This document shows positions 1,070-40,000 of a stretch of DNA of 64,000 bases, one piece after another (the stretch's first letter is position 1; each line of letters starts with the position of its first letter). Position numbers and translations under genes: made by a program. A model generated the notes under the pieces. The model searched no databases, had not been told where the DNA came from, and was given only the letters and a program-made list of their open reading frames with translations. The stretch comes from Pristiophorus japonicus (taxonomy: Eukaryota), in the NCBI RefSeq assembly GCF_044704955.1, contig NC_091984.1, positions 241,118,001 to 241,182,000 on the forward strand. The letters are read 5' to 3'.

Positions 1070-11751
<10,682 letters not shown>

Positions 11752-15405: not shown

Positions 15406-17236
15406 TTGAATGGGGGATCAGTTTACTGTCCTCATTCACAAGGTGAGTATGGAGGGGCTGCCTAACGGAGGCAGTGTGTGAACGGCCTCCTGCACACTTC
15501 CCAGCCTCAACTTTATCATCCCAGCAATTGTCTGGCACAGGAAGAGGGAGGGAAAACAATGGGAAAGAGAAAAGGTATAACTGCTGGTTTTCAGAAAATC
15601 CTTTTGGACAGAAGGGGAAATGTCTGCCCCTCACAGGGAGCAAACTGAGCAGGTGCCGAAAGGCAGAAGCAAAATACCGCGGATGCTGGGATCTGAAATA
15701 AAAACAATGCTGGAAATCCCAGTGGGTCAGGCAGCATCTGCCAAGAGAGAAACAGAGTTAACGTTTCAGGTGCATGACCCCATGATGCAGGGTTATCGAC
15801 CTGAATCGTTAACTTTTCCTCTCCACAGATGCTGTCCGACCCGCTGAGATTTCCAGTATTGGGCGCAGAAAGACTGGTTCTAAACTTCCAGTAGGGTATC
15901 CGGGCATTTCCTAAGCAAACGTGGCGTTCATCATGTGACTTTAGTTAGATGTCTGCAGTGGTGAGGACACCTGGACCAGTCCAGGTGCTGGTCAAGTATT
16001 ACCCGCACACTCGCCGCAGGCGAGGCGACAGAGACACCGATAGCGTCGGGCACTGAGTTTAGTAGAAAACATCTTGCACACAATCCAGGTAAATTACTGC
16101 ACACGTGTATATTTATTTAACAAACATCTCCCACCGTTCAGTAACCAAAGTAAAGCTTTCACAACGCTCAAAAAAACACTCGCACTTTGCTTTTTGTCTC
16201 ACCATTTTACCAACAGACGCACAAAAAGGTTATAAAGTTCCATGCACAGACTGAGGCTTGAGATCACAGGCCCAATGACAGAGTCTGTTACTTGTTTACT
16301 GATCAGAAATACAAGTAGTCACATCTGGAAGCCCAGTTTGCCACATTTGGCTAGCGGATGACGGATTGAACAACACGCCCCCAGTGTCACAGACACCGAA
16401 CCTGAATATTGTGTCCTGGGAACTGTACTCACCCTTTGCATTCCTGCACTAAAATCAGAAATGTGAGAGGCCAGCAGCTTTCAACTCATTCCCAAATTAC
16501 CATCTTTGTGCTTTTACATGGTGAAAAGTCTCATTTCCTCCATGAAAAGATTTGCCGGTGTTTTTGTGTCAAAGTTTGAAGCCAGGGCCGGCAAAGCGGA
16601 GATCTGGGAGAGAGCGGCCTCTGGTCACAAGCGTTTTACGGGAGCAGGTGCAGATGTTCTTGGGCACTGTCGCGGTGAAGTGAGCGTCTGATACCTGAAA
16701 TAATTAAAGCTTCATTGAGGGTTATTCAGTTCTAAAACTTCTCAGAGCTGTGTGCTTTGCATTTCACAAACTCATCTTAAGAATGAACGCCTATGTTCCC
16801 TACTGGCTGATTGCGGTTGTGGTTAGCTATCAGTTTGATATGTCGCTGCCTTTTATTCTATTCTTGACCTTCTCGGGCAATAAATGCCGGCATTGCGGCG
16901 ATGGCCCCATCCCAAGAATGAACAATAAATCAAATCTAATCCTGTCTCAGTATCATTTCAGGAAGTGTTCGTGTGGGCCTGTCGAGCTCAGAATCTTGGC
17001 AAGCCCAGTATTTTAATCCCGACTGAACCTATTCCGGTGGCACCTTTCCGTTCTCACTGTACTCTGCCCGAGAGAAACGGGCTGTGTTTAAATCCACCCA
17101 GCCACGGAAGGAGCTGTGAGCGGAGACCAGCCATGTGTTCCACAGCTGCTGGCTGGTTACAGAATCCTCCGAAATGGTTACTCTCACGCCTAGGGGGGAT
17201 GAGGCTTTGTGGGTGGAAGGGAAAAGCCAGATCGAG

Positions 17237-19204
17237 CTAAAAGGTGGGAGTGAAGAATAACTGTTTGCCAACCCGCTTGAAGTTACACCACCGGTTTCGG
17301 TTTGGATTTACGCTTACCTTTAAGAGTTTGGATTTGGTGTCGGTGACCTGTGACCTGGCATCAGGTGGGCACTTCTCCAGGTGTTGTGGCCCTGTGCCAT
17401 TGTTTCTGGCAGGGGCAGAGAGGGTGACGCTGGAGGCAGTTGCCACCAGGGGTTTATTGGGAGGGCAGGGTGGGTGTGGAGGGGCAGTCCATCTGTTGCC
17501 TCTGGGAGCCAGTTTCCTTCTCATTAGGAGAGCGAAGCTCTGCCGTTCTTCATTCAGCTGCCGCAGTCGGGTTCGTTTTTGGTACTCCAGCCTCCTCAAG
17601 TTCTAAAATGGAGACCAAATTATCAAGTTTTTAAAAGATTCATTCACAGGATGTAGGTGTCGCTGGCAAGGCCTGCATTTATTGCCCATCCCTAATTGTC
17701 CTTAACTGAATTTCAGGACAGCTTCAGAATCACACATTGCTGTGTGTCTGGAGTCACATATAGGCCCAGATTTCCTTCCCTAAAGGACATTAGTGAACCA
17801 GATCTCGCCATTACCTGATACTAGCTTTTTTATTCAAGATTTATTTAATTATTTTCTTGGATAATGAGTTTCAGACTCTAGATTTAGTTACTCCAACGAT
17901 CTCCTTGTTAGCTTCCCATCCTCCACCCTCTATAAAATCCATTTTGTCCAAAACCCTGCTGCCCCCATCTTATCCCACACCACATCCCTCTTGCCCATCA
18001 TTACCTCCCTTGTGGGCCTGCAGTGGCTCCCAGTCTCCCAACTCTTGAAATGTAAAACTCTTGTCCTTTAAATCTCCCATGACATCATCCCCGATCTCTG
18101 TTCGATCCTCCGACCCTACAGTCCTTGGCCAGATAGCCACCAAACTCCATTCCTCATCTGTTGCACACTCTCCTTCCCTTCACCTAACCCGATCTCCTTC
18201 CCGCCCCGAGCCTCTCCCTTGGCAGTTCAGCTGGATGTAGAAGATGCTGCTGCACTATTTGAAAGGTGCCCTGACTGACATTCCGCCCTCACTCACCCAC
18301 CCACAACATTAACTGCTCATTCAGCTCACGTGTTGGTTACCAGGCTCTTGACTGCAATGTTTGCCTGAAAAAAACAATGCGCTTTCGGTCAAAAGTTGTC
18401 CATTTGTTGGAAACTGCTTTGGGATGTCCTGAGGGTGTGATAAGGTGCTATATAAATTAAAGTTCTTTCTTACCTGTCCTCCAAAAGTAGTGTGTGTGTG
18501 GAGGGTATAACACCTCTGCCATCGGTTCGAAACAGCGTGCTCAATCGCGAGAAAGAATCGGACAAAAAAAACTTGCATTTGTATAGCGCCTTTCGCAACC
18601 TCAGGATGTCACAACGATCTTTACAGCCAATGAAGTACTTTTTGAAGTGTAGTCACTGTTGTAATGTAGGAAACGCGTCTACCACTTTGCGCACAGCAAG
18701 CTCCCACAAACAGTAATGTGATAATCACCGGATAATCTGTTTGAGGGATAAATATTGGCCCAGGACACCGGGGAGAACTTCTCTTCGAGCAGTGCCATGG
18801 GATCTTTGACGTCCACCGAAGGGGGCAGACAGGGTCTCGGTTTAACATCTCATCCGAGAGACGCCCTCAGCATGGCACTGGGAGTGTCAGCCTGGATTAT
18901 GTGCTCAAGTCTCTGCTCTCGGAGACCAGAGTGCTCTTGAGCCCCGACTAACAACTTAAGATCAACTCCAAGGGCCCCTCCCCCTATCTAATTTATACTC
19001 TGATTAGAGATAAGTCCGTTTTTAACACTCCCCATTTGTAGTTCCAGAGCTACCAACACTGCTTTAGTAACTAGTCCTGCAAATCTAGGCAGTGTGAGAG
19101 TTATTGGCGTTCATACTGACATCTAAAACAAATTTCAAAGTTACCTCTATCAGGGCCCTCTGGTCCTTAATAAACTGGTTGTGAACAGACTGGGGTGCTG
19201 CCAT
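17237..19204 (-). CDS. Putative uncharacterised two-coding-exon gene, about 141 aa, N-terminal basic coiled-coil-like helix
   Basis: complement(join(17237-17602,19145-19204)): ataATGG Kozak; GAG|gtaact donor and ccattttag|AAC acceptor both phase 0; MAAPQSVHNQFIKDQRALIE+NLRRLEYQKRTRLRQLNEERQSFALLMRRKL...PTF*; exons repeat-free while the intron holds SINE/LINE relics. Confidence 0.6.
18570..18945 (-). mobile_element. SINE (Deu-domain/SacSINE1-like)
   Basis: Reverse complement of the SINE seen at 4870-5345. Confidence 0.75.
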
Positions 19205-20759
19205 TATATCAGCAACGCAAAGAGAATAGACTGGGTCGTTTTTGCATAAGAAGGACAAAGACAGTCGAATGCTGGTTTCTAAATCAGTTGCCATCCTTGG
19301 AACAGGACATAAAGTGCGTTTTAACTCACGGTCCATGGGTACAAAATACTCGCAACATCCAACAGGGAGTGAAGTAGAGCAAGAGCTGGGGCAGACTGAA
19401 GGACTCATTCAGTGGGACGGAAGTGAGGGAGCAGGAATTTATCAGCAGGAAATCGGTCGGTTAAAAAGGTGGTTTTAACTGGATTTAACATGCACCGAAC
19501 CAATTCAGAGGTTTATGTCAACTGTTAGCATTTTTTATTGGTGTTAAACATTACTCAGAGGATTAACAAGTACCAGCTTGTCCATTTTATTGGCATTGGG
19601 AGTTAGGGGAATATCTGCTTTCAAGCCCAGCATCTGGAAGAGGTCAGCGTTTTATTGTGAATCTGGATACGTTGATCTTTTTCTGTGATGTTCCTCATCT
19701 AAACAAAGGAAATAAAAACTGCAGCATTTACTGTTGGATCAAATTATTTTTCTATGTTTATCTTACTGGAGCAGATTCCAGTTTATTGAGCATAATCCGC
19801 TGTCTGACTCAGCGCCCTTCTGTGTGGAGCTGAGCACAGGTTGAAACAGCTGGTGCAGTCTGTTAATACTCATTGTTCGGGCTCGGGACACAACCAAACA
19901 ACTCACTGATACCATCGCAACTCAATGTGAACTAAACACATTGGGGGGAAATACTTTGGTGCAAACGCAACTATTAAAGTAAGTGTTACGACAGGGCGTG
20001 ATCTGACTGCTGGGATTCACTGCAGGATTGGTGGATTAAATATTAATATAGATTCGCAGCAGTGACACTGCTCCCCCCAGCCGAGAACCACACACAGAGT
20101 TAGTCAATAACTGGAGCTTGAAGAATTGTAATTATCTCGGTTCTGTTGTCACTCTCTCTCGGTGCCGCATCAGAAAAACGCAAGATAATTACAGAAAAGG
20201 AAGCCAGACAGCCCAGTGTGGTTCATCCTTCCAGACATTCCCTTTTTCCCCCATCAATTATTTCTTAAATAATTCCAGGGTTTTTTTGTCTTCAGAGTTG
20301 TCCAACAGAAATTGCTGACTAGTCACAGGTGTGGTTACAGTGACATTATTTTAGCTTCGTACACTAATGTTAGTGGGAGCAGCTGACACTACAGGTACAT
20401 GTACACCATCATTTACTTAACAAACAAATATCGGGAGGGTCAGTAACCGCAGGACCACGCGTTATCTGTAAAACCACTTCCCTTCAAATGATGCCACTTC
20501 TGCCCCAGTCAGGAACCGGTCTAACTCCCTCTCTTAGAGAGAGAGTCGGCACCCACCGCACCAGCCGGCAAAACATTCCAGAGACTCATACTCTGGAAAA
20601 AGCAGAACTGCCCAGCATTCAGTCTATTCCTACTCTTACACAGTTTAAACTCGTGTTCCCTTTCCTCCCCAATCTATCAAACTGTAAAGAACTTCATAGA
20701 CAATTAATTATTTTGAAGCATTTTTTTCGTGTGAAAATAAACAACCATCCTGCACATAG

Positions 20760-21005
20760 CAAGGCTTAACAAACAACGATGAGATGAATAACCAGTTAAT
20801 TTGTTTCTGAGTTGGCCAGGTCACCGGGGGAAATTCTCTGCTCTCTCTCTGAGTAGTGCAGTGGGATCTTGGATTTCTACCTGAATAGGCAGATGAGACC
20901 CGACTTATCCATTAAACAACACCCATGAAAATGCAGCATTCAGTACTGCACTGGAGTGTCGGCTTAGGTTATGTGCTCAAACGCTGGAGTGGGCCTTGAA
21001 CCCAT
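20760..21005 (-). mobile_element. Diverged SINE, partial
   Basis: cagtactgcactggagtgtcggc..gtgctcaa body and reversed B box ttgaaccc. Confidence 0.6.
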
Positions 21006-21011
21006 CACTTG

Positions 21012-22072
21012 CTCGGGATAAATGGGTCATTTTCAGGTTGGCAAACTGTAACTAGTGGGGTGCCACAGGGATCGGTGCTGGGGCCTCAACTCTTTACAAT
21101 TTATAGTAATGACTTGGATGAAGGGACCGTGTGTAATGTAGCCAAATTTGCTAATAGTACAAAGATAGGTGGGAAAGCAAGTTGTGAGCAGGATGCAAAT
21201 AATCTACAAAAGGATATAGACAGGCTAAGTGAGTGAGCAAAAATTTGGCAGATGGAGTATAATGTGGGAAAATGTGAGGTTATCCACTTTGGTAGGAAAA
21301 ATAAAAAAGCAAATTATTATTTAAATGGGGAGCGATTACAAAATGCTGCAGTACAGAGGGACCTGGGGGACCTTGTGCATGAAACACAAAACGTTAGCAT
21401 ACAGGTACAGCAAGTGATCAGGATGCCAAATAGAATGTTGGCCTTTATTGCAAGGGGGATAGAGTATAAAAGTAGGGAAGTCCTGCTCCAGCTGTACAGA
21501 GTAAGACCGCACCTGGAGTACTGCGTACATTTTTGGTCTCCTTATTTAAAGAAGGATATACTTGCATTGGAGGCAGTTCAGAGAATGTTCATGGGGTTGA
21601 TTCCTGAGATGAGGGGGTTGACTTATGAAGAAAGGTTGAGCAGGTTGGGCCTATACCCATTGGAGTTTAGAAGAATGAGAGGTGATCTTATTGAAACATA
21701 TAAGATTCTGAGGGGTCTTGACAGGGTAGATGCAGAGAGGATGTTTCCCCTCGTGGGGGAATCTAGAACTAGGGGCATAGTTTCAGAATAAGGAGTCGTC
21801 CATTTAAAACAGAAATGAGGAGGAATTTCTTCTCTCAGAGGGTCATGAATCTTTGGATTTCTCCCAGAGAGCTGTGGAGGCTGGGTCTTTGAATATATTT
21901 AAGGTGGAGATAGGCAGATTTTTGAACGATAAGGGAGTGAAGGGTTATGTGGTTCGGGCGGGGAAATGGAATTGAGGCTAGAATCAGATCAGCCACGATC
22001 TTATTGAATGGTGGAGCAGGCTCGAGGGGCCATATGGCCTACTCCTGCTCCTATTTCTTATGGTCTTATGTT
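21012..22072 (+). mobile_element. CR1-type LINE, 5'-truncated
   Basis: [13 protein letters not shown], degenerate [13 protein letters not shown], 3'UTR. Confidence 0.9.
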
Positions 22073-22270
22073 CTGCTGACTCAGAGGTGCACAAACAGCA
22101 ATTTGATAATGACCAGACCATCTATTTTTTAGTGATGTTGACTCTGGTATAAATATTGGCCATGGCACCGGGGAGAAGATTCCTGTTCTTCTTCGAAGTA
22201 GTGGGATCTTTTACATCCACCTGAGATGGCAGATGGGGCCTCAGTTTAACATGTCATCCGAAAGACTGCA

Positions 22271-22816
22271 CCTCCGACAGTGCAGTGTTCCCTCAGTACT
22301 GCCCCTCCGACAGTGTGGTGTTCCCTCAGTACTGCCCCTCCGACAGTGTGGTGTTCCCTCAGTACTGCCCCTCCGACAGTGTGGTGTTCCCTCAGTACTG
22401 CCCCTCCGACAGTGCGGCACTCCCTCAGTACTACCCCTCCGACAGTGCAGTGTTCCCTCAGTACTGCCCCTCAAACAGTGCGGCATTCCCTCAGTACTGC
22501 CCCTCTGACAGTGCAGCACTCCCTCAGTACTGCCCTTCCAATAGTGCAGCGCTCCCTCAGTACTGCCCCTCCAAAAGTGCAGCGCTCCCTCAGTACTGCC
22601 CCTCCGACAGTGCGGCACTCCCTCAGTACTACCCCTCCGACAGTGCAGTGTTCCCTCAGTACTGCCCCTCCGACAGTGCGGCATTCCCTCAGTACTACCC
22701 CTCCGACAGTGCAGTGCTCCCTCAGTACTGGCCCTCCGATAGTGCAGTGCTCCCTCAGTACTGCCCCTCCGATAGTGCAGTGCTCCCTCAGTACTGCCCC
22801 TCTGACATTGTGGCAC
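22271..22816 (+). repeat. 33-bp minisatellite, about 16 copies (more diverged)
   Basis: Direct tandem units. Confidence 0.95.
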
Positions 22817-23139
22817 TAAAAGGAGCAGAGGTACAATGGCCCGGGAGCAGCGTGGAGGAATGCCACTTCAGGGAGCAGTGCAAGCTAGTACAGGAGGGCG
22901 ACGACTTGGAGAAGGGCGATTCAAATGGATGTCACCAGAATCAAGGTCGCTGATTGGAGTGTGGGCAGGTACAGCAGGAGAGGCGGTAAGCAGCAGAGAT
23001 TGTAGAGCGACATGATCGGGGTCCAGGAGAGACGTGTGTTCTGGACCCAGAAGAGCCGAGGGCCCAGGGGCAGCACGGGCCAGCCCACACTGTAATATGT
23101 GTGTGCACTAGGTCCGTGCAGCGGAGCTGGTCTCCAGTC

Positions 23140-24697
23140 ATACTGCCCCTCCGACAGTGCGGTGCTCCCTCAGTACTGCCCTTCCGACAGTGTGGCACTC
23201 CCTCAGTACTGCCCGTCCAACAGTGCGGCGCTCCCTCAGTACTGCCCCTCCGACAGTGCTGCACTCCCTCAGTACTGCCCCTCCGACAGTGCGGCACTCC
23301 CTCAGTACTGTCCCTCTGACAGTGCGGCACTCCCTCAGTACTGACCCTCCGACAGTGCGGCACTCCCTCAGTACAGTCCCTCCGACAGTGCGGCACTCCC
23401 TCAGTACATTCCCTCCGACAGTGCGGCACTTCCTCAGTACAGTCCCTCCGACAGTGCGGCACTCCCTCAGTACTGACCCTCCGACAGTGCGGCACTCCCT
23501 CAGTACTGCCCCACCGACAGTGCGGCGCTCCCTCAGTACTGCCCCTCCGACAGTGCTGCACTCCCTCAGTACTGCCCCTCCGACAGTGCGGGACTCCCTC
23601 AGTACTGCCCCTCCGACAGTGCGGCACTCCCTCAGTACTGCCCCTCTGACAGTGCGGCACTCCCTCAGTACTGACCCTCCGACAGTGCGGCACTCCCTCA
23701 GTACAGTCCCTCCGACAGTGCGGCACTCCCTCAGTACAGTCCCTCCGACAGTGCGGCACTCCCTCAGTACAGTCCCTCCGACAGTGCGGCACTCCCTCAG
23801 TACTGCCCGTCCGACAGTGCGGCGCTCCCTCAGTACTGCCCCTCCGACAGTGCTGCACTCCCTCAGTACTGCCCCTCCGACAGTGCGGCACTCCCTCAGT
23901 ACTGCCCCTCCGACAGTGCGGCACTCCCTCAGTACTGTCCCTCTGACAGTGCGGCGCTCCCTCAGTACTGCCCCTCCGACAGTGCGGCACTCCCTCAGTA
24001 CTGCCCCTCCGACAGTGCGGCACTCCCTCAGTACTGCCCCTCTGACAGTGCTGCACTCCCTCAGTACTGCCCCTCCGACAGTGCGGGACTCCCTCAGTAC
24101 TGCCCCTCCGACAGTGCGGCACTCCCTCAGTACTGCCCCTCTGACAGTGCGGCACTCCCTCAGTACTGACCCTCCGACAGTGCGGCACTCCCTCAGTACA
24201 GTCCCTCCGACAGTGCGGCACTCCCTCAGTACAGTCCCTCCGACAGTGCGGCACTCCCTCAGTACAGTCCCTCCGACAGTGCGGCACTCCCTCAGTACTG
24301 CCCCTCCGACAGTGCGACACTCCCTCAGTACTGCCCCTCCGACAGTGCGGCACTCCCTCAGTACTGCCCCTCCGACAGTGCGGCGCTCCCTCAGTACTGC
24401 CCCTCCGACAGTGCGGCGCTCCCTCAGTACTGCCCCTCCGACAGTGCGGCGCTCCCTCAGTACTGCCCCTCCGACAGTGCGGCGCTCCCTCAGTACTGCC
24501 CCTCCGACAGTGCGGCGCTCCCTCAGTACTGCCCCTCCGACAGTGCGGCGCTCCCTCAGTACTGCCCCTCCGACAGTGCGGCGCTCCCTCAGTACTGCCC
24601 CTCCGACAGTGCGGCGCTCCCTCAGTACTGCCCCTCCGACAGTGCAGCGCTCCCTCAGTACTGCCCCTCCGACAGTGCGGCGCTCCCTCAGTACTGC
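23140..24697 (+). repeat. 33-bp minisatellite, about 47 copies
   Basis: Direct tandem units with higher-order blocks. Confidence 0.97.
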
Positions 24698-24744
24698 AGT
24701 GGACTGTCAGCCTTGATTCTGTTCTCAAGTCTCTGGAGTGGGAC

Positions 24745-24951
24745 TGTGATGGCGTTGCTGCTCCTCCCTGCCGCCAGAGGGCGCTCGAAGCCCCACGCGC
24801 TCCATAGCAACCGACCGCCGGGCGCCGCATTCATTGTGAGCGTTGATTGGCTCGCAGTTGGTGCGTGCCCGAGCGGCCGAATGGCAGGGCGCCTTGTTGC
24901 AGGGTGGAGAGTTTAGCAATGGCGGCCCGGAGGCGTCTTTGAGCCGGTGCG
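24745..24951 (+). promoter_or_regulatory. TCTN2 CpG-rich promoter/5'UTR with RFX X-box-like motif and reverse CCAAT box
   Basis: cgctCCATAGCAAC at 24798-24811; ATTGG at 24846-24850; directly upstream of exon 1. Confidence 0.65.
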
Positions 24952-25039
24952 ATGGGCGGCGGGCTGCCGGCCGCGCTCCGCTGGGTCATCCGACAATGGT
25001 GCTGCAGCCTCCTGCTGACCGGGGCCGCGGGCCGTGTGG
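24952..25039 (+). CDS. TCTN2: TCTN2 exon 1 (signal-peptide-like)
   Basis: gcgATGG; [29 protein letters not shown]|gtgagc, phase 1. Confidence 0.75.
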
Positions 25040-28000
25040 GTGAGCGGTGCTCACAGCAAGCGGCCGAGGGAGTGGAGTGAGTGAGGAGGAGGAGGAGGAG
25101 GAGGAGGAGGAGTGAGTGAGTGAGTGAGTGAGTGAGTGAGGGAGGGTGTGTTGGGGTCTGATTGAGGACAGTAAGGGGTCGGGGTGTGTGGGGTGAAGGG
25201 TCGGGGTGTGGGGTGAAGGGTCGGGGTGTGTGGGGTGAAGGGTCGGGGTGTGGGGTGAAGGGGTCGGGGTGTGTGGGGTGAAGGGGTCGGGGTGTGTGGG
25301 GTGAAGGGGTTGGGGTGAAGGGGTCGGGGTGTGTGGGGTGAAGGGGTCGGGGTGTGTGGGGTGAAGGGGTCGGGGTGTGTGGGGTGAAGGGGTCGGGGTG
25401 TGTGGGGTGAAGGGTCGGGGTGTGTGGGGTGAAGGGGTCTTGGTGTGTGGGGTGAAGGGTCGGGGTGTGGGGTGAAGGGTCGGGTGTGTGGGATTGGAGG
25501 GGTCGGGGTGTGTGGGGTGAAGGGTCGGGGTGTGTGGGATTGGAGGGGTCGGGGTGTGTGGGGTGAAGGGTCGGGTGTGTGGGATTGGAGAGGTCGGGGT
25601 GTGTGGGGTGAAGGGTCGGGGTGTGGGGTGAAGGGTCGGGTGTGTGGGATTGGAGAGGTCGGGGTGTGTGGGGTGAAGGGGTCGGGGTGTGGGATTGGAG
25701 AGGTCGGGTTGTGTGGGGTGAAGGGTCGGGGTGTGTGGGGTGAAGGGGTCGGGGTGTGGGATTGGAGAGGTCGGGTTGTGTGGGGTGAAGGGTCGGTGTG
25801 TCGGGTGAAGGGGTCGGGGTGTGTGGCAGGGAGTGCGGGTGTCGGGCTGTTGGATTGGGGTGTGGTTGGGGGCGGTGAGCGGATTGGATGAGGTGAGGTC
25901 GGAAGATACCCGAGGGTGGGTGTGATTGGGACGGTGAGGGGTTATGGTGTGGGGAAGGGGATGAGTGTGAAGAGTTGGGGTGTGAGGGTTGGGCAAGGGG
26001 GTGAAGGTGGTGCTGGGATTGTGGGCGGATGGGAATCCTTCTGCTCGGCCCCAGGTATCGCTACAAGCTCGTGCCCTGATGGTTAGTGCCTCAGTGGACA
26101 GGTCCCAAGTGCTGTGCAGTGTTAGCTGGTTAAACTCCAGCATTAGCCCCGGTGCAGCTTTGGGGTCTCCATAGCTGGGTGTTGCCAGAATACACCTAAG
26201 CTCACTAGGTGTGTCGGGGCCTCCCTCTGACCTAGCACTGAACCCGTATCTTTCACTAGTTTCTCTCCTATCTCCCCTCATGCCCTCGCCGTGCTCGTCT
26301 TGTCATTGGGATCAGCACGTACTCCCTTCACCCTATTCCCACTAAACTGCCAACAAACCCCCCCCCCCAACTTCCTGACCCCCCATGTTAGCTGATATTT
26401 GTTAACTGTTCTCTCTCCTCAGGTACTGTGTCCCTCTCTATCACCCTTCTCCCCCAAAAAACAACCCTGTCCTTGCAAACTTCCGCCCTATTTCCAACCT
26501 CCCTTTCCTCTCAAGTCCTTCAATGTACTATTGCCTCCAAAATTAGTGCCCACCTTTCCTGCAACCCCATGTTTGAATCCCTGCCACAGTACTCATCAAA
26601 GTCACAAATGACATCCTCTGTGACTGATACTTTCCCTCCTCATCCTTCTCGACCTCTCTGCTGCCTTTGACACAGTTGACACACCATCCTCCTATCTGCT
26701 CACCTCCATTGTACAACTGGGTGGGACTGCCCTCGCCTGGTCCATTCTAATCTGTCCAGTCCCAGCCACAGAATCACCTGCAGTGGCTTCTCTTCCCACT
26801 CTCTCTTGACCCCTCCATGTATCTGTGTTATCACACTGCTTGTTCAACATCTAGTCCTGATGAGCAGAAATTTCCTCCAGTTAAACATCAGGAAGACAGA
26901 AGCCATTGTCTTCGGCCCCCGCCACAAACTCTCCACTGATTCCAATGCCCCTCCCTGGCCACGGTCATGAGCTGAACCAGATGTGCCTTTAGCCATCCAG
27001 GTCCTAAACTCTGAAATTATTCCTTAAATCTCTCTGTCTTTTCACCTCCTCCTCCTTCTTTAAAACCCCCCCTTAAAACCTCCCTCTGACTGAGCTTTCA
27101 GTCACCTGCCTGATATTTTCTCCTTTGCCTTCCTACGCTGATGTGAAGCATCTCGGGTACTTGAAGAAGAAAAATTTGCAGAGCTATGGGGAAAGAGCGA
27201 ATGAGTGGATGTAAAGAGCCGGCACAGGCATGCTGGGCGGAATGGCCTTGTGTGCTGTACGATTCCATGATTCTTAGCTGCTGATGACATAATGGTGTAA
27301 CTATTCTACTTTTCATTCAGTGTTCCAGCCATCTTTCTTGATTGCCTCAGGACCTGAAGTAAATGTGTACCTGGTGGGAGAGGCCAGCTCTGCTGTTACC
27401 CTCAGCGTGGGGACAGTTTCTGCCACTGATGGTATGACTCCCTTATTGTTCTGGTTTATGGGCACATATGTTTCAGAATTAGGACAGTCTGTGAATAGAA
27501 GCTGTCATTAGCTTTAAATAACCTTGTAAAAGCAAAATAATTAGAGTAACATCTTTTTGAAAGTTGAAGTAGGAACTATACATCTATATGCTCTTCCTCT
27601 TTAAATTCCTCCTCCCAAACCATTCCTTCCTTGTAGTCCCTGAAGTTTAGAAAGGATCCTCCAAAGAGCTTGACTTTGTGCTCGCCAGACATCGATCGAC
27701 ACGAGCACTCTGCAGGTATAGCACTCGAGCAGAAACCGTGGCTGATTCTCCCCTCTCAAGCCCAGGAAACGGAAGTTAGTTATAGTGGGCCCAAATTTCC
27801 CCAGGAGTTACTCCGCTTTTTTTGGAGCAACTAGATTTTTTTGGAGTAACTGAAAAATCGCAATTCTCCCCATTTATTTTGCTCCAATGTAAGTGAGTTA
27901 GTTAGGTTTTTTTTTTAGTTTTGTTTTTTACACCTGTTTTGGCCATTTAAGCAAGTTTAGCCAGCTAAAACTTACTCCAAACTAACTTAGGCCACTTGTG

Positions 28001-31000
28001 TCCGCTCTGAAAAACCTTGCGGTGAAATAAGAAATCAGTGTAGGACGGGGGGGAAAGTGAGAATATTCTGAAGCACTAAACACCTTCACAACATCAGCAC
28101 AATATCTTCATCACAATATTTTCATCACGACATCATCAATAATAAATGAAAAATAAATCAATCAGTAAAAAATAAAAAGTCCTACCTTGCTGACTGCAGC
28201 ACGCAGCGGCTCGCCCTTCGGCCAGGGCTAGGAGTGGCAGGCTCGTTACTACTACAGACATCGAGGCCCTCCGGCTCAAAAGGCTGCCCCGATGTGGGCC
28301 GAGTTGGCGGTTCTCCCGCGATGCAGTCTATCCGGAACAAAACGAACAAGATGGGTCAGCAGATGAGAAACATAGAAAATAGGTGCAGGAGTAGGCCATT
28401 CGGCCCTTCGAGCCTGCACCGCCATTCAATAAGATCATAGCTGATCATTCACTTCAGTACCCCTTTCCTGCTTTCTCTCCATATCCCTTGATCTCTTTAG
28501 CCGCAAGGGCCACATCTGACATGAGAGCCATGTTAGAGCTGAATGGCCACCAGAAAACGGTCGCACAGAGAAGTCATTTTGGTTGGCTTGAGACAGGGAC
28601 GGCCCTGGCGCGCTTGGTCTTTTCGTTCAGCTGGTCTTTTGATAAAACAAAAGCCATGCCCTCGTCTTTCTGCTGCCTACTGCCGCTCCATACCGCATGT
28701 CCCCGCTGCTCGTTGGCCCTGCGTGATCTTCGCCTGCGGCCCTTGTTTCGACTTCTGTCTCGTTTAGTCTGCGTGCCTGTCCACAGTGAGCCGCTCTCTC
28801 TATCTCTCTCCATCACTCCCGCTGTTTTCCCCGCACCGCACACTGCTCATCTGGACCGGCAATGGACTTGCCACCGTCTTGCAACATTACACCGCAGTCG
28901 AATTTAAGGGAGCTTCTGCGGGCTCGGATGTTGCCTGGCAGCTTGTCGTCGGGACCTCGGCGAACGGCCACCGTGAGCTCCACCGGGACTGAACCGATGA
29001 TGCAGGCCCGGCTTTCTTTCCCCACGCGGTGACACTTTGGTCGCACTAGTCACTCTCCCTTTACTTGTGGGACAGTCTACGGGCAGTCTGTGTTTGGTGC
29101 AATTGATTTTTTAGCAATGGTTACATCTTGCTCCAAGGGATAGAAAAAAAAAACCAAAATTAAACATTCAGATTTCATGAATCTAATTTTCGAGTCCACT
29201 TTCATATGTGCTCCGAGTACGCTGGTCTCCCTTGAACCACTTCATTCTTTCAGCCCATTTTTTACAGTGACAAAAGTGACCACGGGAAAATCAGGCAATT
29301 CCTTCTATACTGATGGCTACCTTGTCAGTATTGAGTTTAATATTAAAATGAAGTGCCTGTGTATTTTTAGTGCAGAACTCAGTGGTGATCCAGTGAGGGA
29401 TCTCTGCCCAGTTACCTGTTCCACCAGCCATGGCAACTGGAAAATCATCTTGTAAAATCTTTCAGGAAAAGTACATTTGAGATGCTTGGAAACTACCCGT
29501 GTAGAACTTGAATGAATAGAACATAAACAGTACTGATGGTATTTGTAACAGAACCAAGTGAATAAAAATATGAAAACCAGTTCAAGAATTTTTATTGGAA
29601 TGATAAGACAGTTAAAATTTACATTGTTTTTAAAGTTCTATTAACCAGGAGATGCTGGTTACAGTTTACAGTTATAGAATTACACACCAGAACATCAGAA
29701 GTAAACATTAAAAATACTACCTCCTGGGACCATTTTGTCACTGGCCCACAGATGTATATGACCTAATAATCTGCTGCTTGTCCAACAGCACTACAGCGAA
29801 CGCAATACATTACAGTTCAATCACACCTGCATCCAGAGCAGTTCTCAACTCAAGTCTAGAAAAAAGTGCACAGGATTAAGGCCACTTATGTAACTCAATG
29901 CTGCTTAATTTTGAGGCACTGAATACCATCAACTGAAGTGTGGCTTAGACATAGCACTTGTGCAATAAAATAATTCTTGTATCAAACTTTACTTTAATAT
30001 GACTCTTTAAGATCACTTAAAAACTTTAAGATCACTTATAAACTTGTAAAGTTACAAAACAATTTCAATTAAAAAAAAGTTACACTGTAAGATCACTTAA
30101 CTTTAAGATCACTTGGTGTAAATTTAAACAACTTATAAAATGTGAGAATATTTACACTCTTAAGATCACTTAAAAACTGTAAGATCACAAAGTTGTAAAG
30201 TTACAAAACTTACTAAATGATTTCAATTTGAAAACAGTTACAACAGTAAAATCATCAACAACAACAGCAGCAAAGAAAGGCTGCATCCATCTCATCCACA
30301 TCTCGGTGAATGTGCACTTCCTCATGGGGGGGTGGTGGGGGAGGGGGTGCAGTGGGAGTGGCATTTGATTGGCCGGGCTGTGCGCCCTTATTGCAGCAGC
30401 TACCTCACACAGGCACTCCCTGATGGCCTGTGCCATCGTTTGCACTTGCCTCTGACATTCCCGCCTTCAGTTCCCGTGTCATTACTGCTATTTCTCCCGA
30501 CAGTGCCGTTATTTCATCACCATCCCCACTGACGGTGCCCACGAGTGATCGGGCAAGGACATTGGACTCCACACCCAATGCCATAACCTCAAGCACATTT
30601 GCGAGACGCAGGTTGGGACGGTGGGGCCCTGGGTGTTCCAAGCTGCATTCCACCTCCACCACTGGGATCCGCAACCTTGGAACCTGTGAAACCATGGAAT
30701 GTTGCACCAGAACTTGCATCACTATATGCGGATGGGTACGTGGAGAAATGATGGCATGTCGCATCAGAACTGAAAGCACTCGCAAGGATGGAATGTCGGA
30801 CCAGAACTCATGGAGGTGTCTGGCAGAGTGAGGCCCTGCACTATGGACTGATCCATATTACGATCAACATTCTCCCATGAACACATATCCATGCTCCCCC
30901 CGGGCATTGGTCTGGATCACACCACCTGAATCTTCTTCTGGATTGGCATCATGTTCTGCAAAATATAACAGACCAGACACATGATTAGCAGCACAGGAGG

Positions 31001-34000
31001 GGACAGGCTGGGTGGCATAAGTAGTCTCTCACGTAGCAGGCCAGTCAGGACTTGCCCTCTCCATCGCGTGTGGGCCCAGCTTGTGCATTATTGTTTGTTT
31101 TTCTCCAAGTGCGACTCATCAAAGCAGCGACCCTCTGTTCCAAGGGTGTCAGTTGGTGCAGATTTGGCGGGCCTCCTCCTGTTCAAGTTCTTACCCTTTT
31201 GTTGTGGGCCAATTTCTTCTGCAAAGATGAAAATATAACTGTTTAGAGAGGGTGTCTTACTGCTGGGTGGGACATATATAGATGGTCACATTTACAATTG
31301 CAATTCCATTGAAAAATCAAGATATTACTTACACTAATTACTTGACCAAGGTCCTACCATTTCTTTTTACACTGGCTTCCAGATCTCATGGTATTCACCA
31401 CTCCGTAGTATTCTTCTGCAACTAGGTTCCAGCGTTTCTTCAATTCTTTGGATGCCACTTTTGTATGACCTCTGTTGCTGGTATCCAGCTCCTGCCATCT
31501 GTTCTCAATGACGTTAACTAGAGTCTCCACTTCCTCATGCAAGAAATTCTTCGTTCTTGGTGCACGTTGTTGCATTGTTGTATTGCATTTACACTCAGTG
31601 ATTTTTTGAAACACACAGTCCTTACCTTGCATGCACCTATGCAGTACTCCTTCAGGCACCCAAAAATCACTGAGCTCGCTTTACCTTTAAATGGCCGATT
31701 GCCAAGGTTGCTGAAACATTACGCATGTGAGCACGCTCCAACGCACATGCTGTGGGAGGGGGCGGAGCTAGTGCCGTGCTGGGTCAACATAGCTGGCAGG
31801 GGGGGGGGCGGGGCTCGGGCTCAGCGTGTTGCTGCCGGCAATCAAAAACCCGCTGAGCCCCCCCCCCCCCCCCCCCCCGCCAGCTGTGTTGACCCATCAT
31901 GGCATTAGCCCCGCCCCCCACACAGCTTTTGATGCACCATGCCATGGGCCTGCAACGTTCCAGGAGCGAGAAGAATTACAAGGTTGGTTTTCAGTGCGGT
32001 CTTTATCCTCCAAAGTGCGCCGTTTTAAGTGGGGGGGGGAAACTTGGGCCATTGTCTGCTGAACTTCAACTCAGACCAGCTAACTCCTTACAGACTGGCA
32101 ACTCCGGCTTGGATGTGCAGCTCAGTTATGTGTCTTTACCAGGATGGATCCATTTCAGTGCAGCCATGTATTGGAATTCTGGTTGTAGCTAACGCTTCTC
32201 ACGTCTGATTCTTTTGTGTCCACTTTATGTATGACACCCCTTTGTCTGTATAAATAAAGCACGCTTACTGCGGCAAATCTCTTATTCTTTGTCCGTTCAT
32301 TAACTGAGGACAGTGTTTTCGTAACTAAAGCTAATAATTGCTCTGTCACTGGTGATTTGGAGGTTAGAGACAGGATCAAGGGCACATGCTGTAATTTTAA
32401 AATGAGAAAACTGAACTGAATCACTTTTGGTTTGTTTTCTATGTAGATTTACCCCAGTCTGGCTGTCTGACGAAAAATACCACTGATCAGTGGGTACTGA
32501 CTAGTTCAATCGATGAGGTTAGTACTTTTTCATGAAACTTTCTCATATTTCTTTCTGGGGTCTTTTTGTGAAAAAACTTCCTCCAACCAGATTGCTGGGA
32601 TGTTAAACGTGTCCAACATTAAAAGGACTCCAAAGGAGGATCCATATCAGTAAACTAAACACTGCCTGCTCGTCCACTAACTGCACTGCAATCTGGTTTT
32701 CATGCTTTCACCAGAAGAGATTTCAGAAATAAGGATAGAGCTTGTGCAGAAACTCCTAGGAACAGAAGTAGGCCATTCAGACCCTTGACCCTGTTCTGCC
32801 ATACAATGAGATCATGGCTGACCTGCAACCTCACTCCATTTAGTCCATAACCCTTAATACCTTTGGTTAACATAAGAAATCGGAGCAGGAGTAGGCCATT
32901 TGGCCCCTCGAGCCTGCTCTGACTTTCAATAAGATCATGGCTGATCTGATCTTGGCCTCCACTTCACTTCCTCTTAACGGAAAGCTATCAATCTCCAATT
33001 TAAAATTAACAATTGATCTAGCATCAATTGCTGTTTGCGCAAGAGAGTTCCAGACATCCCCACCACCCTTTGTGTGTGGAAGTATTTCCTAATTTCACTC
33101 TGGAAAGGTCTGGCTCTAAGTACATAGGATTTCAGTGAATATACAGCACAAAAACACGCCATGAGACCCAACCAGTCCATGCCGGCGTTTATACTCCACT
33201 CGAGCCTCCTCCCATCTTTCCTCATCTAAATCTATCAGCATAACCCTCTATTCCCTTCTCCCTCATATGCTTGTCCAGCCTCCCCGTAAATGCATCGATA
33301 CTATTCGCTTCAACCACTCCCTGTGGCAGCGAGTTCCACATTTTCACCACTCTTTGGGTAAAGAGGTTTCTTCTGAATTCCCTATTGGATATCTTGGTGA
33401 CTCTTTTATATTGATGGCCTCTAGTTATGCTCTTCCCCACAAAGTGGAAAACTCTGCATCTATGCTCTCAAAACCATTCATAATTTTAAAGACCTCAATT
33501 AGGATATTCCTCGGCCTTCTTTTTTCAGCCTGTTCGCAAAGAATCATAGAATGGCTGCCTTCCGTTCTGTAACCATTGGGCCCATTGAGCCCGTGCCGAC
33601 TGTTAGTCCCACATCCCTGCCCTTTCCTGTAGCCCTGCAATCTTTTTTCCTTCAGATACTTATCCAACTCCCTTTTGAAAGATAAAATTGAATCTGCCTC
33701 CATCACCCTTTCAGGCAGCGCACTTCAGATCTTAACCGCTCGTTGTGTAAACAAAGTTTTTTCTTACATCACCTTTGGTTCTTTTGCCAATCACCTTAAA
33801 TCTGTATCCTCTGGTTCTCGATCCTTCTGCCAATAGGAACAGTTTCTCTCTATCTACTCTGTCCAGACCCCTCCATCAAATCTCCTGAGAAGAAAAGACT
33901 TTAAAGAAAAGGGATAACCATCCGTGGTTAACTCAGGAAATAAGGGATGGTGTCAAATTGAAAACAAGGGCATACAAAGTGGCCAAGACTAGTGGGAGGC

Positions 34001-37000
34001 CAGAGGATTGGGAAACTTAAAAACCAGCAAAGAACATCTAAAAAAAATAATAGAGGGAAGATAGATTATGAAAGTAAACTAGCAAGAAATATAAAAACAG
34101 ATAATAGCTTCTACAGGAAGAGAGTAGCTAAAGTAAACGTTGGTCCCCTGGAGGATGAGACTGGGGAATTAATAATGGGGAACGGGGAAATGGCAGAGAC
34201 TTTGAACAAATATTTTGTATCGGTCTTATGGTAGAAGACACAAAAAATATCCCAACAATGGATAATCAAGGGAGGAACTTAAAACATTATCACTGTCATT
34301 AAAGAAGTAGTACTTGGTAAAATAATGGGACTAAAGGTGGACAAGTCCCCTGGACTGATGGTTTGCATCCTAGGGTCTTAAAAGAAGTGGCTGCAGAGAT
34401 AGTGGATGAATTGGTTGTAATCTACCAAAATTCCCTGGGTTCTGGGGAGGTCCCAGCGGGTTGGAAAACCGCAAATGTAACGCCCTTATTTAAAAAAGGA
34501 GGCAGATAGAAAGCAGGAAACTATAGACCAGTTAGCCTAACATCTGCGGTTGGGAAAATGCTGGAGTCCATTATTAAGGAAGTAGTAGCAGGACATTTGG
34601 AAAAGCAAAATTAAGTCGAGCAGAGCCAGCATGGTTTTATGAAAGGGAAATTATGTTTGACAAATTTGCGCGAGTTTTTTGAGAATGTAACGAGCAGGGT
34701 GGATAAAGGGGAACCAGTGGATGTGGTGTATTTGGATTTCCAGAAGGCATTCGATAAGGTGCCACATAAAAGGTTACTGCATAAGAAAAAAGTTCACGGG
34801 GTTGGGGGTAATATGTTAGCATAGATAGAGGATTGGCTAACTAACAGAAAACAGAGAATCGGGATAAATGGGTCATTTTCCGGTTGGCAAACAGCCGCAG
34901 GGATCAATGCTGGGGCCTCAACTATTTACAATCTATACGAATGATTTGGATGAAGTGTAATGTAGCCAAGTTTGCTGATGATACAAAGATGGGTGGGGAA
35001 GCAAGTTGTGAGGAGGACACAAAATCTGCAAAGGGATATAGACAGGCTCAGTGAGTGGGCAAAAATTTGTCAGATGGAGTATAATGTGGGAAAATGTGAG
35101 GTTATCCACTTTGGCAGAAAAAGTAAAAAAGCAAATTATTATTTAAATGGTGGAAAAAAAAAAATCACAAAATACTGAAGTACAGAGAGACCTGGGGGTC
35201 CTTGTGCATGAAACACAAAAAGTTAGTATGCAGGTAAAGCAAATAATCAGGAAGGCAAATGGAATGTTGACCTTTATTGCAAGGGGAATGGAGTATAAAA
35301 GTAGAGAAGTCCTGCTGCAATTGTACAAGGTATTGGTGAGGCCACACCTGGAGTACTGCGTACAGTTTTGGTCTCCTTATTTAAGGAGCGATATACTTGC
35401 ATTGGAGGCAGTTCAGAGAAGATTCACTTGGTTGATTCCTGAGATGAAGGGGTTGACTTATGAAGAAAGGTTAGGCCTGTACTCATTGGAATTCAGAAGA
35501 ATGAGAGGTGATCTTATTTAAACATATAAGATAATGAGGGGGCTCGACAAAGTAGATACAGAGAGTTTCCATTTACGGGGGAATCTAGAACTTGGGGGCA
35601 TAGTTTCAGAATAAGGGGTCGCCCATTTAAAACTGAGATGAGGATTGTAAATCTGTGGAATTATCTGCCCCAGAGAGCGGTGGAGGCTGCGTCATTGAAT
35701 ATATTTAAGGCGGAGATAGATAGATTTTTGAGCGATTATAGGAGTAAAGGGTTATGGGGAGCGGACAGGGAAGTGGAGCTGAGTCCATGATCTGAGCAGC
35801 CATGATCTTATTACATGGCGGAGCAGACTCGAGGGGCCAAATGGCCGACTGCTGCTCCTATTTCTCGTGCTCTTATGTTATCCTCTCAATCCTCTCTGCT
35901 TCAAGGAGAACAACCCCAGCTTCTCCAATCTATCAACATAACTGAAGTCCCTCATTCCTGGAATCATTCTCGTAAATCTTTTCTGCACCCTCTCTAAGGT
36001 CTTCACATCCTTCCTAAAGTGCGGTGCCTAGAATTGGACACAGCATCCCAGTTGGGGCTGCATCAATATTTTATACAGGTTCATCATAATTTCCACACTT
36101 TTGTATTCTATACCTCTATTTATGAAGCCCTGTCACCTTCAACAATTCATGCACACAGGTGTCTCTGTTCATGTATCCACTTTAGGATTGTACTATTTAG
36201 TTTATATATCCTCTCATTCTTTCGACCAAAATGCATCACTTCACACTTTTCTGCGTTAATTTTCATCTGCAACGTGTCTGCTCATTTCACCAGCCTGTCT
36301 ATGCACTTCTGGTATCATCCTTATAAATCTTTTTTGCACCCTCTCCAGTGACTATATCTTTTTTATAATATGACGACCAGAATTGTACACAGTACTCCAA
36401 GTGTGAACTAACCAAGATTCATTACAGGTTTAGCATAACTTCCCTACTTTTCAATTCTATCCTCAGAGGAGGACAAAGGGTTTAATTAGGAGGGGAAAAT
36501 AGAGTATGAGAGGAAGCTTGCTGGGAACATAAAAACTGACTGCAAAAGTTTCTATAGATATGTGAAGAGAAAAAGATTAGTGAAGACAGATTCGGGTGAC
36601 TTTATAATGGGAAACAAAGAAATGGCAGACCAGTTGAACAAATACTTTGGTTCTGTCTTCACGAAGGAAGACACACATAACCTTCTGGAAATACTAGGGG
36701 ACCGAGGGTCTAGCGAGGAGGAGGAACTGAAGGAAATCCTTATTAGTCGGGAAATTGTGTTAGGGAAATTGGTGGGATTGAAGGCCGATAACTCCCCAGG
36801 GCCTGATAGTCTGCATCCCAGAGTACTTAAGGAAGTGGCCCTAGAAATAGTGGATTCATTGGTGATCATTTTTCAACAGTCTATCGACTCTGGATCAGTT
36901 CCTATGGACTGGTGGGTAGCTAATGTAACACCACTTTTTAAAAAAGGAGGGAGAGAGAAAACGGGTAATTATAGACCGGTTAGCCTGACATCAGTCATGG

Positions 37001-40000
37001 GGAAAATGTTGGAATCAATTATTAAAGATGAAATAGCAAATCATTTGGAAAGCAGCGACAGGTTCGGTCCAAGTCAACATGGATTTAGGAAAGGGAAATC
37101 ATGCTTGACAAATCTTCTTGAATTTTTTGAGGATGTAACTAGTAGAGTGGACAAGGGAGAACCAGTGGATGTGGTGTATTTGGACTTTCAAAAGGCTTTT
37201 GACAAGGTCCCACATAAGAGATTGGTGTACAAACTTAAAGCACATGGTATTGGGGGTAATGTATTGACGTGGATAGAGAACTCGTTGGCAGACAGGAAGC
37301 AGAGAGTCGGGATAAACGGCAGTCAGTGACTAGTGGGGTGCCGCAGGGCTCAGTGCTGGGATCCCAGCTATTTACAATATTCATTAATGATTTAGACAAA
37401 GGACTTGAGTGTAATATCTCCAAGTTTGCAAATGACACTAAGCTGGGTGGCGGTGTGAGCTGTGAGGAGGGTTCTAAGAGGCTGCAGGGTGACTTGGACA
37501 GGTTAGGTGAGTGGGCAAATGCATGGCAGGTGCAGTATAATGTGGATAAATGTGAGGTTATCCACTTTGGTGGCAAAAACACGAAGGCAGAATAGAATCT
37601 TAATTGGGGCAGATTAGAAAAAGGGGAGGTGCAACGAGACCTGGGTGTCATGATACATCAGTCATTGAAAGTTGGCATGCAGGTATAGCAGGCGGTGAAG
37701 GAGGCAAATGGTATGTTGGCCTTCATAGCTAGGGAGTTTGAGTATAGGAGCAGGGAAGTCTTACTGCAATTGTACAGGGCCTTGGTGAGGCCTCACCTGG
37801 AATATTGTGTTCAGTTTTGGTCTCCTAATCTGAGGAAGGACCTTCTTGCTATTGAGGGAGTGCAGCGAAGGTTCACTAGACTGATTCCCGGGATGGCTGG
37901 ACTGACATATGAGGAGAGACTGGATCGACTGGGCCTGTATTCATTGGAGTTTAGAAGGATGAGAGGGGATCTCATAGAAGCATATAAAATTCTGACGAGA
38001 CTGGACAGGTTAGATGCAAAAAGAATGTTCCCGATGTTGGGGAAGTCCAGAACCAGGGGATACAGTCTAAGGATAAGGGGTAAGCTATTTAGGACCGAGA
38101 TGAGGAGAAACTTCTTCACCCAGAGAGTTGTTAATCTGTGGAATTCGCTACCGCAGAGAGTTGTTGAGGCCAGTTCATTGGATATATTCAAAAGGGAGTT
38201 AGCTATGGCCCTTACGGCTAAAGGGATCAAGGGGTATGGAGAGAAAGCAGGAAAGGGGTACTAAGGGAATGATCAGCCATGATCCTATTGAATGGGGTAC
38301 AGGTTCGAAGGGCCGAATGGCCTACTCCTGCACCTATTTTCTATGCTTCTATCCCTCTAGAAATAAAACCTAGTGCTTGGTTTGCTTTTTTTTTTAATGG
38401 CCTTGTTAACCTATGTCTCTATTTTTAGTGATTTTCTGTATCTGTACTCCCAGATCCCTTTGTTCCTCTACCCCACCTAGACTCGCCCTCCAAGTACTAA
38501 GCAACCTCCCTATTCTTCCTGGCAAAATGTAATACCTCACATTTATTTGTGTTGAATTTCATTTGTCAATTATATGTTGTTTAGGGAAAGAAATTGCCCG
38601 GTCTGCCCTGTATGTGACTCCAGACCCACAGCAATATGGTTGACTCTTCACTGCTGTCTGAAATGGCGGCTCACCGCCACCTTCTCCAGGGCCATTAGAG
38701 ATGGGCAATAAATGCTGGCCTCGCCCACATCCCCAGAACAAATCAAAAAAATAACAGGCATGTGACAGTGCCACCTAGGGACACCCAGTCTAATCCCACT
38801 CCCTCTGAGAATCCCATATTTCAATCACTTGGCAGAGATTTTTTCCCCCGAACCCTCACATTTACTTTTTTGTGTTTTGCCGACATGAATCCCCTGGGGT
38901 TGGTGTCAAAGGGGAGGTGTCAGCGCAGCACCCCCTGGCGGGCGGGCGGGTTACCTTCCTCGTTCATGGCGCCACCTCTCCTGCTCCATCTCCGCCACCG
39001 CTTGAACTCTCGCGCGCCTCAATCTCTCGGGGCCGACGGAGGCTCAGCTGTGGCGCGGTGTTGAGGACTGTTTAAGTCGGCTCGGCCGGGCCCTGGGCGC
39101 TGACTGAAATGTTTAGGCTCTGCCCCCCCTAGTCCTAGACTCCCCAGCCAGTGGAAACAGTTTCTCTCTATCTACCCTCTCTGTTCCCCTTAATATCTTG
39201 AAAACTTTGATCAGATCGCCCCTTAACCGTCTAAATTCTAGGGAATGCAAACCTAATTTGTGTAATCTCGCTTCGTAATTTAACCCTTGAAGTTCTGGTA
39301 AACCTACTCCCTCCAAGACCAACATAGGTGTGATGCCCAGAACAGCTCACAGTGCTCCAGGTGTGGGCTAACCAGGGTTTTGTACAGCTGCAGCATAACT
39401 TCTACCCCCTTCTATTCTAGTCCTCTCGATATAAAGGCCAGCATTCCATTAGCCTTTTTGATTATTTTCTGTACCTGTTCATGACATTTTAATGATCGAT
39501 GTACTTGAACCCCCAAGTCTTTTTGGACATCCACTGCTTTTATTCTTTCACCATTTACCCTGTTCTATCCTTTTTAGGTCAAAGTGGATGACCTCACATT
39601 TGCCTACATTTAAATCCATTTGTTTTGTCCATTCACTTAATCTATCAATATCACCTTGTAATTTTATGCTTCCATTTACCCTACCTACAATTCTACCTAA
39701 CTTTGCATCATTGGCAAAATTGAATATGTGACTTTCTATGCCATCATCTAAGTCATTACTAAATACTGTGAATAGTTGAGACGCCAACACAGATCCCTGC
39801 AGGACACACTAGTCACCTCCTGCCCATTGGAGTACCTGCCCATTATCCCTATTGCCTGTCTATGCCGCTCAGCCAGTGTCCTAACCAGGTCAATAATTTG
39901 CCCTCAGTTCCATGGGCTTCAACTTTAGTTAACAGCCTCGTAAGTGGGACTTTATCAAATGCCTTCTGGAAGTCCATATAAATAACATCCATAGACATTC

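Follow-up and report, generated by a model that had tools for sequence, protein, structure and literature searches.

An unnamed three-exon gene beside a tectonic gene in Pristiophorus japonicus and its uncharacterized relatives in jawed vertebrates

Introduction

The closest known relatives of the gene described here are predicted proteins that RefSeq and GenBank carry as 'uncharacterized', 'hypothetical' or without a name. Searches and cluster look-ups together placed them in 36 named jawed-vertebrate taxa, with three cartilaginous fishes, bichirs, sturgeons, paddlefish, gar, bonytongues, eels, tarpon, herrings, salmonids, lungfish, two salamanders, the tailed frog and one skink among them. 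Among better described proteins that are built of long helices, CFAP53, MNS1, CFAP45 and CFAP210 lie along the protofilaments of sperm doublets (PMC10663601). The gene in question lies in a stretch of 64,000 nucleotides (nt) of Pristiophorus japonicus (assembly GCF_044704955.1, contig NC_091984.1, positions 241,118,001 to 241,182,000), which we call the window and in which positions are counted from the first letter. It is transcribed from the minus strand, has three coding exons, and is flanked by GTF2H3 and by a tectonic gene, which we take to be TCTN2 from the human gene order. An earlier note, made from the letters alone, had proposed at this site a lineage-restricted or unannotated gene with two exons and a coiled-coil product of 141 amino acids (aa). 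Here we revise this model and show that the gene is orthologous to predicted proteins that RefSeq and GenBank already contain and that form an annotated but unnamed family.

Results

When a profile of 24 non-cartilaginous homologues was searched against the 1954 open reading frames (ORFs) of the window, the exon-1 frame ranked first (E value 2.6e-20), the exon-2 frame second (E ~1e-17 to 2e-17) and the piece 16572-16703, which holds exon 3, third (E 0.038); the next best ORF had an E value of 3. The three-exon model of 200 aa was equal in length to the horn-shark protein XP_067910614.1 (P0001) and identical to it at 150/200 positions. Identity was 58/64 in exon 1 and 29/41 in exon 3, against 34/61 in the linker encoded by exon 2. 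All three exons were open and bounded by canonical splice sites (Table 1). Further, the frames, the four ATGs, the donor GAG/GTAACT after 19145, the acceptor TTTTAG/AAC before 17602, the phase 0 of this intron and the 141-aa translation were all present in the sequence as the earlier note had given them, and the exons were free of within-window repeats, which lie in the intron as it had said. We regard a minus-strand three-exon coding gene beside TCTN2 as almost certainly real.

The third exon had been missed. Transcript evidence came from two public sequencing runs of one study (X1 and X2), the kind and tissue of which are not on record; X1 was counted as RNA solely on account of its spliced contig. 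This 706-nt contig joined 16277-16691 to 17315-17603 and skipped 623 nt with GT..AG ends on the minus strand; the joint, at 16691/17315, had CT..AC ends at cut +3 and a depth of 11.4. A strong donor, AAG/GTAAGC, follows 17318, and the acceptor lies at 16695. Because the X1 contig splices exon 2 to exon 3, the last 26 residues of the two-exon model (17317-17237) and the AATAAA at 16857 belong to intron 2. Minus-strand AATAAA had been claimed near 16855 and 16115; both are present, at 16857 and 16117, and only the first is intronic. The family sequences agreed with this revision. A bony-vertebrate profile gave 158.7 bits to the three-exon model and 98.6 bits to the 141-aa model, with no score for the former tail, and hhalign assigned exon 3 to the family with a probability of 93.9% (in an alignment that includes sharks) compared with 0.04% for the former tail.

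Exon 2 had a single DNA match in the 5.9-Gb assembly and is thus single-copy, and the exon-3 query matched elsewhere solely through a repeat in its untranslated part, so that no second coding exon 3 was found. Since exon 2 and coding exon 3 are single-copy in the assembly, a processed copy does not explain the spliced contig. We infer an end of the 3' untranslated region (UTR) near 16084, contigs being unable to reveal the end of an RNA. Within the 3' UTR, run X1 differed from the assembly by T>G at 16534 and by a 2-nt insertion after 16520, which are likely alleles. An Rfam search of 15400-25200 gave no match.

The open frame of exon 1 spans 19408-19145 and contains ATGs at 19408, 19336, 19294 and 19204. 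A start at 19204, as formerly proposed, removes 30 conserved N-terminal residues that are present in 28/30 family proteins, the two exceptions being shorter models. The ATG at 19294 has A at -3 and G at +4, with a pyrimidine-rich, acceptor-like AG immediately upstream, and gives a product of 186 aa (20.8 kDa, isoelectric point (pI) 10.3); in most bony vertebrates the start Met of the family aligns 4 residues inside this frame. The ATG at 19336 adds 14 residues, 12/14 of them identical to P0001 and not seen in bony vertebrates, and yields exon products of 64 + 95 + 41 = 200 aa. Judged by these features, the full product may be either the 186-aa or the 200-aa form, and both starts are possible.

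The first junction, 19145/17602, was supported by the homologous proteins, which read through it without a gap, and not by the contigs: among the joints listed for X1 and X2 none connected 19145 to 17602, although contigs show presence and not absence. Further, a salmonid read-through product (P0039) departs from the family sequence at the intron-1 residue; there, other first exons are used by P0040 and by a skate isoform (P0006). Because all three change at the same point, the position of intron 1 appears to be old.

At the acceptor of exon 2, an X1 contig carried a loose end of 26 nt that is one unit of a 33-nt tandem array. The unit matches 38 places in the window, of which 22 lie upstream on the same strand and 4/22 are followed by GTCAGT. 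The array thus appears to supply an alternative upstream exon, and the simplest reading of these 26 letters of a common repeat would be an RNA that begins at the tectonic promoter and is spliced from the array to exon 2, leaving out exon 1. A minus-strand ATG at 24830 opens a frame of 220 codons that runs through the array, reaches the donor at 24171 and matches the reading frame of exon 2; the likeness of the alternative skate N-terminus to this frame was not significant. Forms lacking exon 1 are annotated alongside full ones in skate also (P0006 and P0012). One reading frame of the 33-nt unit has no stop codon. Arrays of the unit (1286-2508, 22272-22701 and 23149-24667, all on the minus strand) adjoin both CpG islands, those of the GTF2H3 5' region and of the tectonic promoter, with the last array directly behind the island of the tectonic gene.

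The relatives were collected by several searches. Exon 2, searched exhaustively against 1.84 billion representatives, returned 10 matches, 8 of which were relatives; the other two, P0003 (a mussel repeat protein) and P0010, were discarded as chance. Profile searches gave 26 matches among 6024 candidates and 24 among 8000, the two sets overlapping. Sensitivity was low: the 8000-candidate search lost several known members, and a word-indexed search with exon 2 found nothing even though P0001 exists. No mammal, bird, turtle, Xenopus, zebrafish or spiny-rayed fish was among the matches of these searches, which miss known members and did not cover fused forms by alignment. We treat loss from mammals, birds, zebrafish and spiny-rayed fishes as a lead rather than a result. 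The term lineage-restricted holds only loosely, for jawed vertebrates, within which relatives range from sharks to a skink, whereas 'unannotated' does not hold, as other species have RefSeq or GenBank models.

In a midpoint-rooted tree of 29 rows the main groups were recovered and the window protein was placed with the three other cartilaginous-fish rows (100/100); the deep branches were left open. The single copy, this tree position and the shared position of intron 1 are all as expected of an orthologue. The window protein also has the N-terminal motif DP.Y..C..D.M and the long helix with the invariant residues E82, E83, F87, M91 and L95. In sturgeons, two near-identical family copies are annotated (P0020, P0064-P0066), as expected from the sturgeon genome duplication. 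No paper was found for 18 gene or protein identifiers of the family, in a survey that left out supplements, which may hold expression tables, and most subscription journals; judged by titles and the starts of abstracts, none of 13 listings that name both GTF2H3 and TCTN2 dealt with an intervening gene.

AlphaFold2, run on a 27-row alignment with P0001 as first row and numbering, predicted helices at 18-33, 35-46 and 49-95, the last an amphipathic helix of 47 residues that continues across the first junction, as the earlier note had seen. The predicted local confidence (pLDDT) was 83-97 over 21-90 (90-97 over 31-90) and below 56 after 100, with no order past 100, and the predicted template modelling score (pTM) was 0.38. 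Conservation was 0.64-0.73 for residues 15-98 and 0.35 for the linker, with 0.48 at the C-terminal motif, and the 5 invariant and 14 near-invariant columns of the 27 rows all lay inside 30-95. The conserved hydrophobic residues 51, 55, 62, 66, 69, 77, 80, 87, 91 and 95 fall at 60-140 degrees of the helical wheel and form a straight stripe. The hydrophobic period was 3.59-3.63 in 26/26 complete rows and not the heptad 3.5, at which the power was about half of the peak; by this weak test the label coiled-coil does not fit, and a bundle of the 11-residue type may apply instead. R78 and E82 are invariant polar residues off the stripe, which suggests, in terms of the predicted helix, a specific partner. 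The pI was 9.6-11.5 in 27/27 rows, with 10-15 Lys or Arg in the helix. At the C-terminus, a CxC..S..P motif was present in most ungapped rows (C174 in 21/23, C176 in 20/23, S186 in 24/26 and P189 in 23/26); in the window protein S186 is replaced by R, and the next Ser and P189 are kept.

No Pfam entry was over its cut-off for the pieces of the window (0/6), for 9 homologues or for the 27 members; PDB searches by sequence gave 0 and 2 weak matches, the ESM Atlas no usable match and Foldseek no structural match at E 0.001. VIA-align returned generic single-helix matches alone (Z 5.3-6.3), in which axonemal and unrelated chains were tied and residues 18-46 were barely covered.

The gene is head-to-head with the tectonic gene, as formerly noted, and tail-to-tail with GTF2H3 at a distance of about 4 kb. 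The first tectonic exon was set by eye at 24952-25020. The only internal exons identified were 27293-27442 and 56132-56311, about 29 kb apart; a genome search with PF07773 gave no match, and PF25752 matched. The first intron of the tectonic gene contains microsatellites and a 23-nt G/T-rich tandem array at 25066-25826. The CpG-rich region between the two genes is likely a common promoter. A further X-box-like site with 2 mismatches is found at 19921-19908, some 600 nt before coding exon 1 in the direction of transcription; it could mark a second promoter, but such matches in the window are fewer than expected by chance.

Table 1. Coordinates of the features of the unnamed gene and of its surroundings in the window
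Feature	Position	Strand	Details
Coding exon 1	19145..19294	-	50 codons from the likely start ATG 19294; the N-terminal helices, which are the most conserved, and the beginning of the long helix
Possible N-terminal extension	19295..19336	-	14 codons (ATG 19336), as in the horn-shark model
Intron 1	17603..19144	-	GT..AG, phase 0; abundant repeats near 17630-17800 and 18520-18910
Coding exon 2	17318..17602	-	95 codons; long helix (second half) and the Pro/Ser-rich linker after it
Intron 2	16695..17317	-	623 nt, AAG/GTAAGC ... TTTCAG; includes AATAAA 16857
Coding exon 3	16569..16694	-	41 codons and TGA (16571-16569); CxC and S..P motifs
Likely 3' UTR	16084..16568	-	AATAAA 16117-16112; X1 contigs over 16277-16691 and 16084-16254
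33-nt tandem array	23141..24697	-	47 copies; GTCAGT donors after 24171, 23676, 23478 and 23346; candidate alternative upstream exon
Second block of 33-nt array	22265..22807	-	From the array map
CpG-rich promoter region	24251..25250	.	GC 0.66-0.67, CpG observed/expected 0.70-0.85; X-box half site 24812-24803
GTF2H3 (Tfb4)	5451..11751	+	PF03850 at 5451-5588 and 11306-11440; last exon and stop read by eye; more exons upstream
Tectonic gene	24952..56311	+	ATG 24952; PF25752 (DUF1619_N) at 56132-56311, E 2.8e-12; may extend further

Discussion

We favour, tentatively and with slightly less than even confidence, a role in cilia or sperm tails, where this small basic protein would serve as an adaptor with a long helix. 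The stripe and the invariant polar residues of the long helix would lie along one conserved partner, such as the wall of a microtubule or a helix of the axoneme or transition zone; the disordered linker would tether this helix flexibly to a second, short anchor formed by the C-terminal cysteines and serine, which might be controlled by lipidation or phosphorylation. Lipidation, metal binding and phosphorylation of these residues are guesses. Transcription from the CpG island, likely shared with TCTN2, would switch the gene on with the RFX cilia programme, and an RNA that lacks exon 1 would encode a form devoid of the N-terminal helices. We place the protein in cilia or sperm on account of the apparent sharing of the tectonic promoter, the RFX2 data on TCTN2 and a build like that of helical axonemal proteins. 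RFX2 binds mouse Tctn2 in testis (PMC4498915), and TCTN2 expression falls in RFX2-null human neurons (PMC10900739).

Several results weigh against parts of this interpretation. X2 covers intron 2 unspliced and may represent precursor RNA or DNA, and both runs cross the donor at 19145 unspliced (X1 at 19072-19318, X2 at 19101-19459), so that a full transcript of exons 1, 2 and 3 is expected from the homologues and was not seen in the contigs. Only 26 letters link the upstream exon to the array, the unit of which has 38 matches even within this one window, and the tectonic ATG lies 5.7 kb away from the start codon of the gene. The promoter had been described as bearing an X-box; it has only a half site, which misses the full consensus even at 3 mismatches, and the window contains 13 X-box matches where 25.5 are expected by chance. 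An X-box trace in the upstream extensions of the homologues was not significant (p 0.06-1). The periodicity peak of the long helix is marginal (p 0.063), and long amphipathic helices of basic character are common. Further, PMC4498915 also states that RFX2 is not the dominant control on the expression of core cilia genes of this kind.

The same features could be read without cilia: the basic long helix might act as an adaptor in a nuclear or cytoplasmic complex or bind nucleic acid, its place beside TCTN2 being incidental. The pI of about 10, the 10-15 Lys or Arg of the helix and the lack of a full X-box in the window all fit such a protein, as do the best Pfam scores below cut-off, which belong to nuclear helical families (Sds3, E 0.008-0.01; B-block_TFIIIC, E 0.07-0.1). 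However, these scores came from 1-3/27 rows and are of the sort that any charged helix tends to give, and the upstream splice leads back to the tectonic promoter. We consider this reading rather unlikely.

Kinship to CCDC190 (PF15768) through the N-terminal long helix is a good deal less probable. The hydrophobic spacing matches, and the best ungapped register against the CCDC190 exon of this genome was the one expected by eye; however, its score was not above that of shuffled sequences (p 0.34), and hhalign gave a probability of 11.7% in another register, each with one CCDC190 sequence. Moreover, 0/27 family members match PF15768, and a genome search with PF15768 matched only contig C8 near 118.9 Mb. 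The CCDC190-family gene found there (C8:118910905-118930323) comprises two exons that are separated by about 19 kb and each exceed the Pfam cut-off.

It is also improbable, slightly more so, that the locus mostly makes divergent RNA from the TCTN2 promoter with exon 1 skipped, yields little or no full protein and is on its way to loss. The sole upstream splice seen bypasses exon 1, the exon-1 donor is bridged unspliced in both runs, and annotated members were found in just 3 cartilaginous fishes. In contrast, no exon is interrupted, splice sites are canonical throughout, the higher identity of exon 1 than of the linker to horn shark is as expected under selection, and skate has annotated exon-1-less forms beside full ones; the splice evidence itself comes from two runs of one study. 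That the 141-aa form (ATG 19204, stop 17237) is the main product is very improbable, since its open frame, the X2 contig 17244-17467 that spans the exon-2 donor and the conger isoform P0035 that begins at the matching Met stand against the observed splice of exon 2 to exon 3, a tail without family match and the upstream extension of 28/30 family proteins.

The adaptor reading can be extended to a fuller picture, which as a whole we consider doubtful: an ancient unnamed gene of jawed vertebrates, lost from mammals, birds and most modern fishes, would share the TCTN2 promoter and encode a helical part of cilia or sperm tails that has yet to be described and has a conserved domain of its own, possibly with 11-residue repeats, and in this shark a 33-nt repeat would serve as an alternative first exon that replaces the N-terminal helices. 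The gene itself is already predicted in the public annotation of other species and thus does not represent a new kind of discovery. The new point is that the 'uncharacterized' models, scattered as they are, belong to a single family whose N-terminal domain of 80 residues is strongly conserved, is retained throughout the jawed vertebrates and lies outside any Pfam family. If the absence from human, mouse, chicken and zebrafish holds, it would explain the lack of study and would make the gene a candidate ciliary or sperm part lost by model species. Newts, sturgeon and salmon keep the gene, so that its function is directly testable there.

Among known systems, the microtubule inner proteins CFAP53, MNS1, CFAP45 and CFAP210 serve as a comparison of working mode only, with long helices along the surface of a partner (PMC10663601); no sequence relation to them was found, and the helix of the window protein has only 47 residues. 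CCDC190, also small and found in vertebrates, resembles the window protein in the spacing of a long, charged helix at its N-terminus, but it gives no significant sequence or profile match and has a separate locus in this genome. The models of bony vertebrates (gar LOC107079560, sturgeon LOC131698606, salmon LOC106583623, lungfish LOC122799471, newt LOC144791488 and skink lerEdw1_003519) have the same N-terminal and long helices and, in most, the C-terminal motif, at 30-47% identity over 146-173 aligned residues; they differ in the more internal start Met and in a variable linker. Closest is XP_067910614.1 of Heterodontus francisci (200 aa), which has no annotated function and differs most plainly in the linker, whereas all three exon products align to the window model without a gap.

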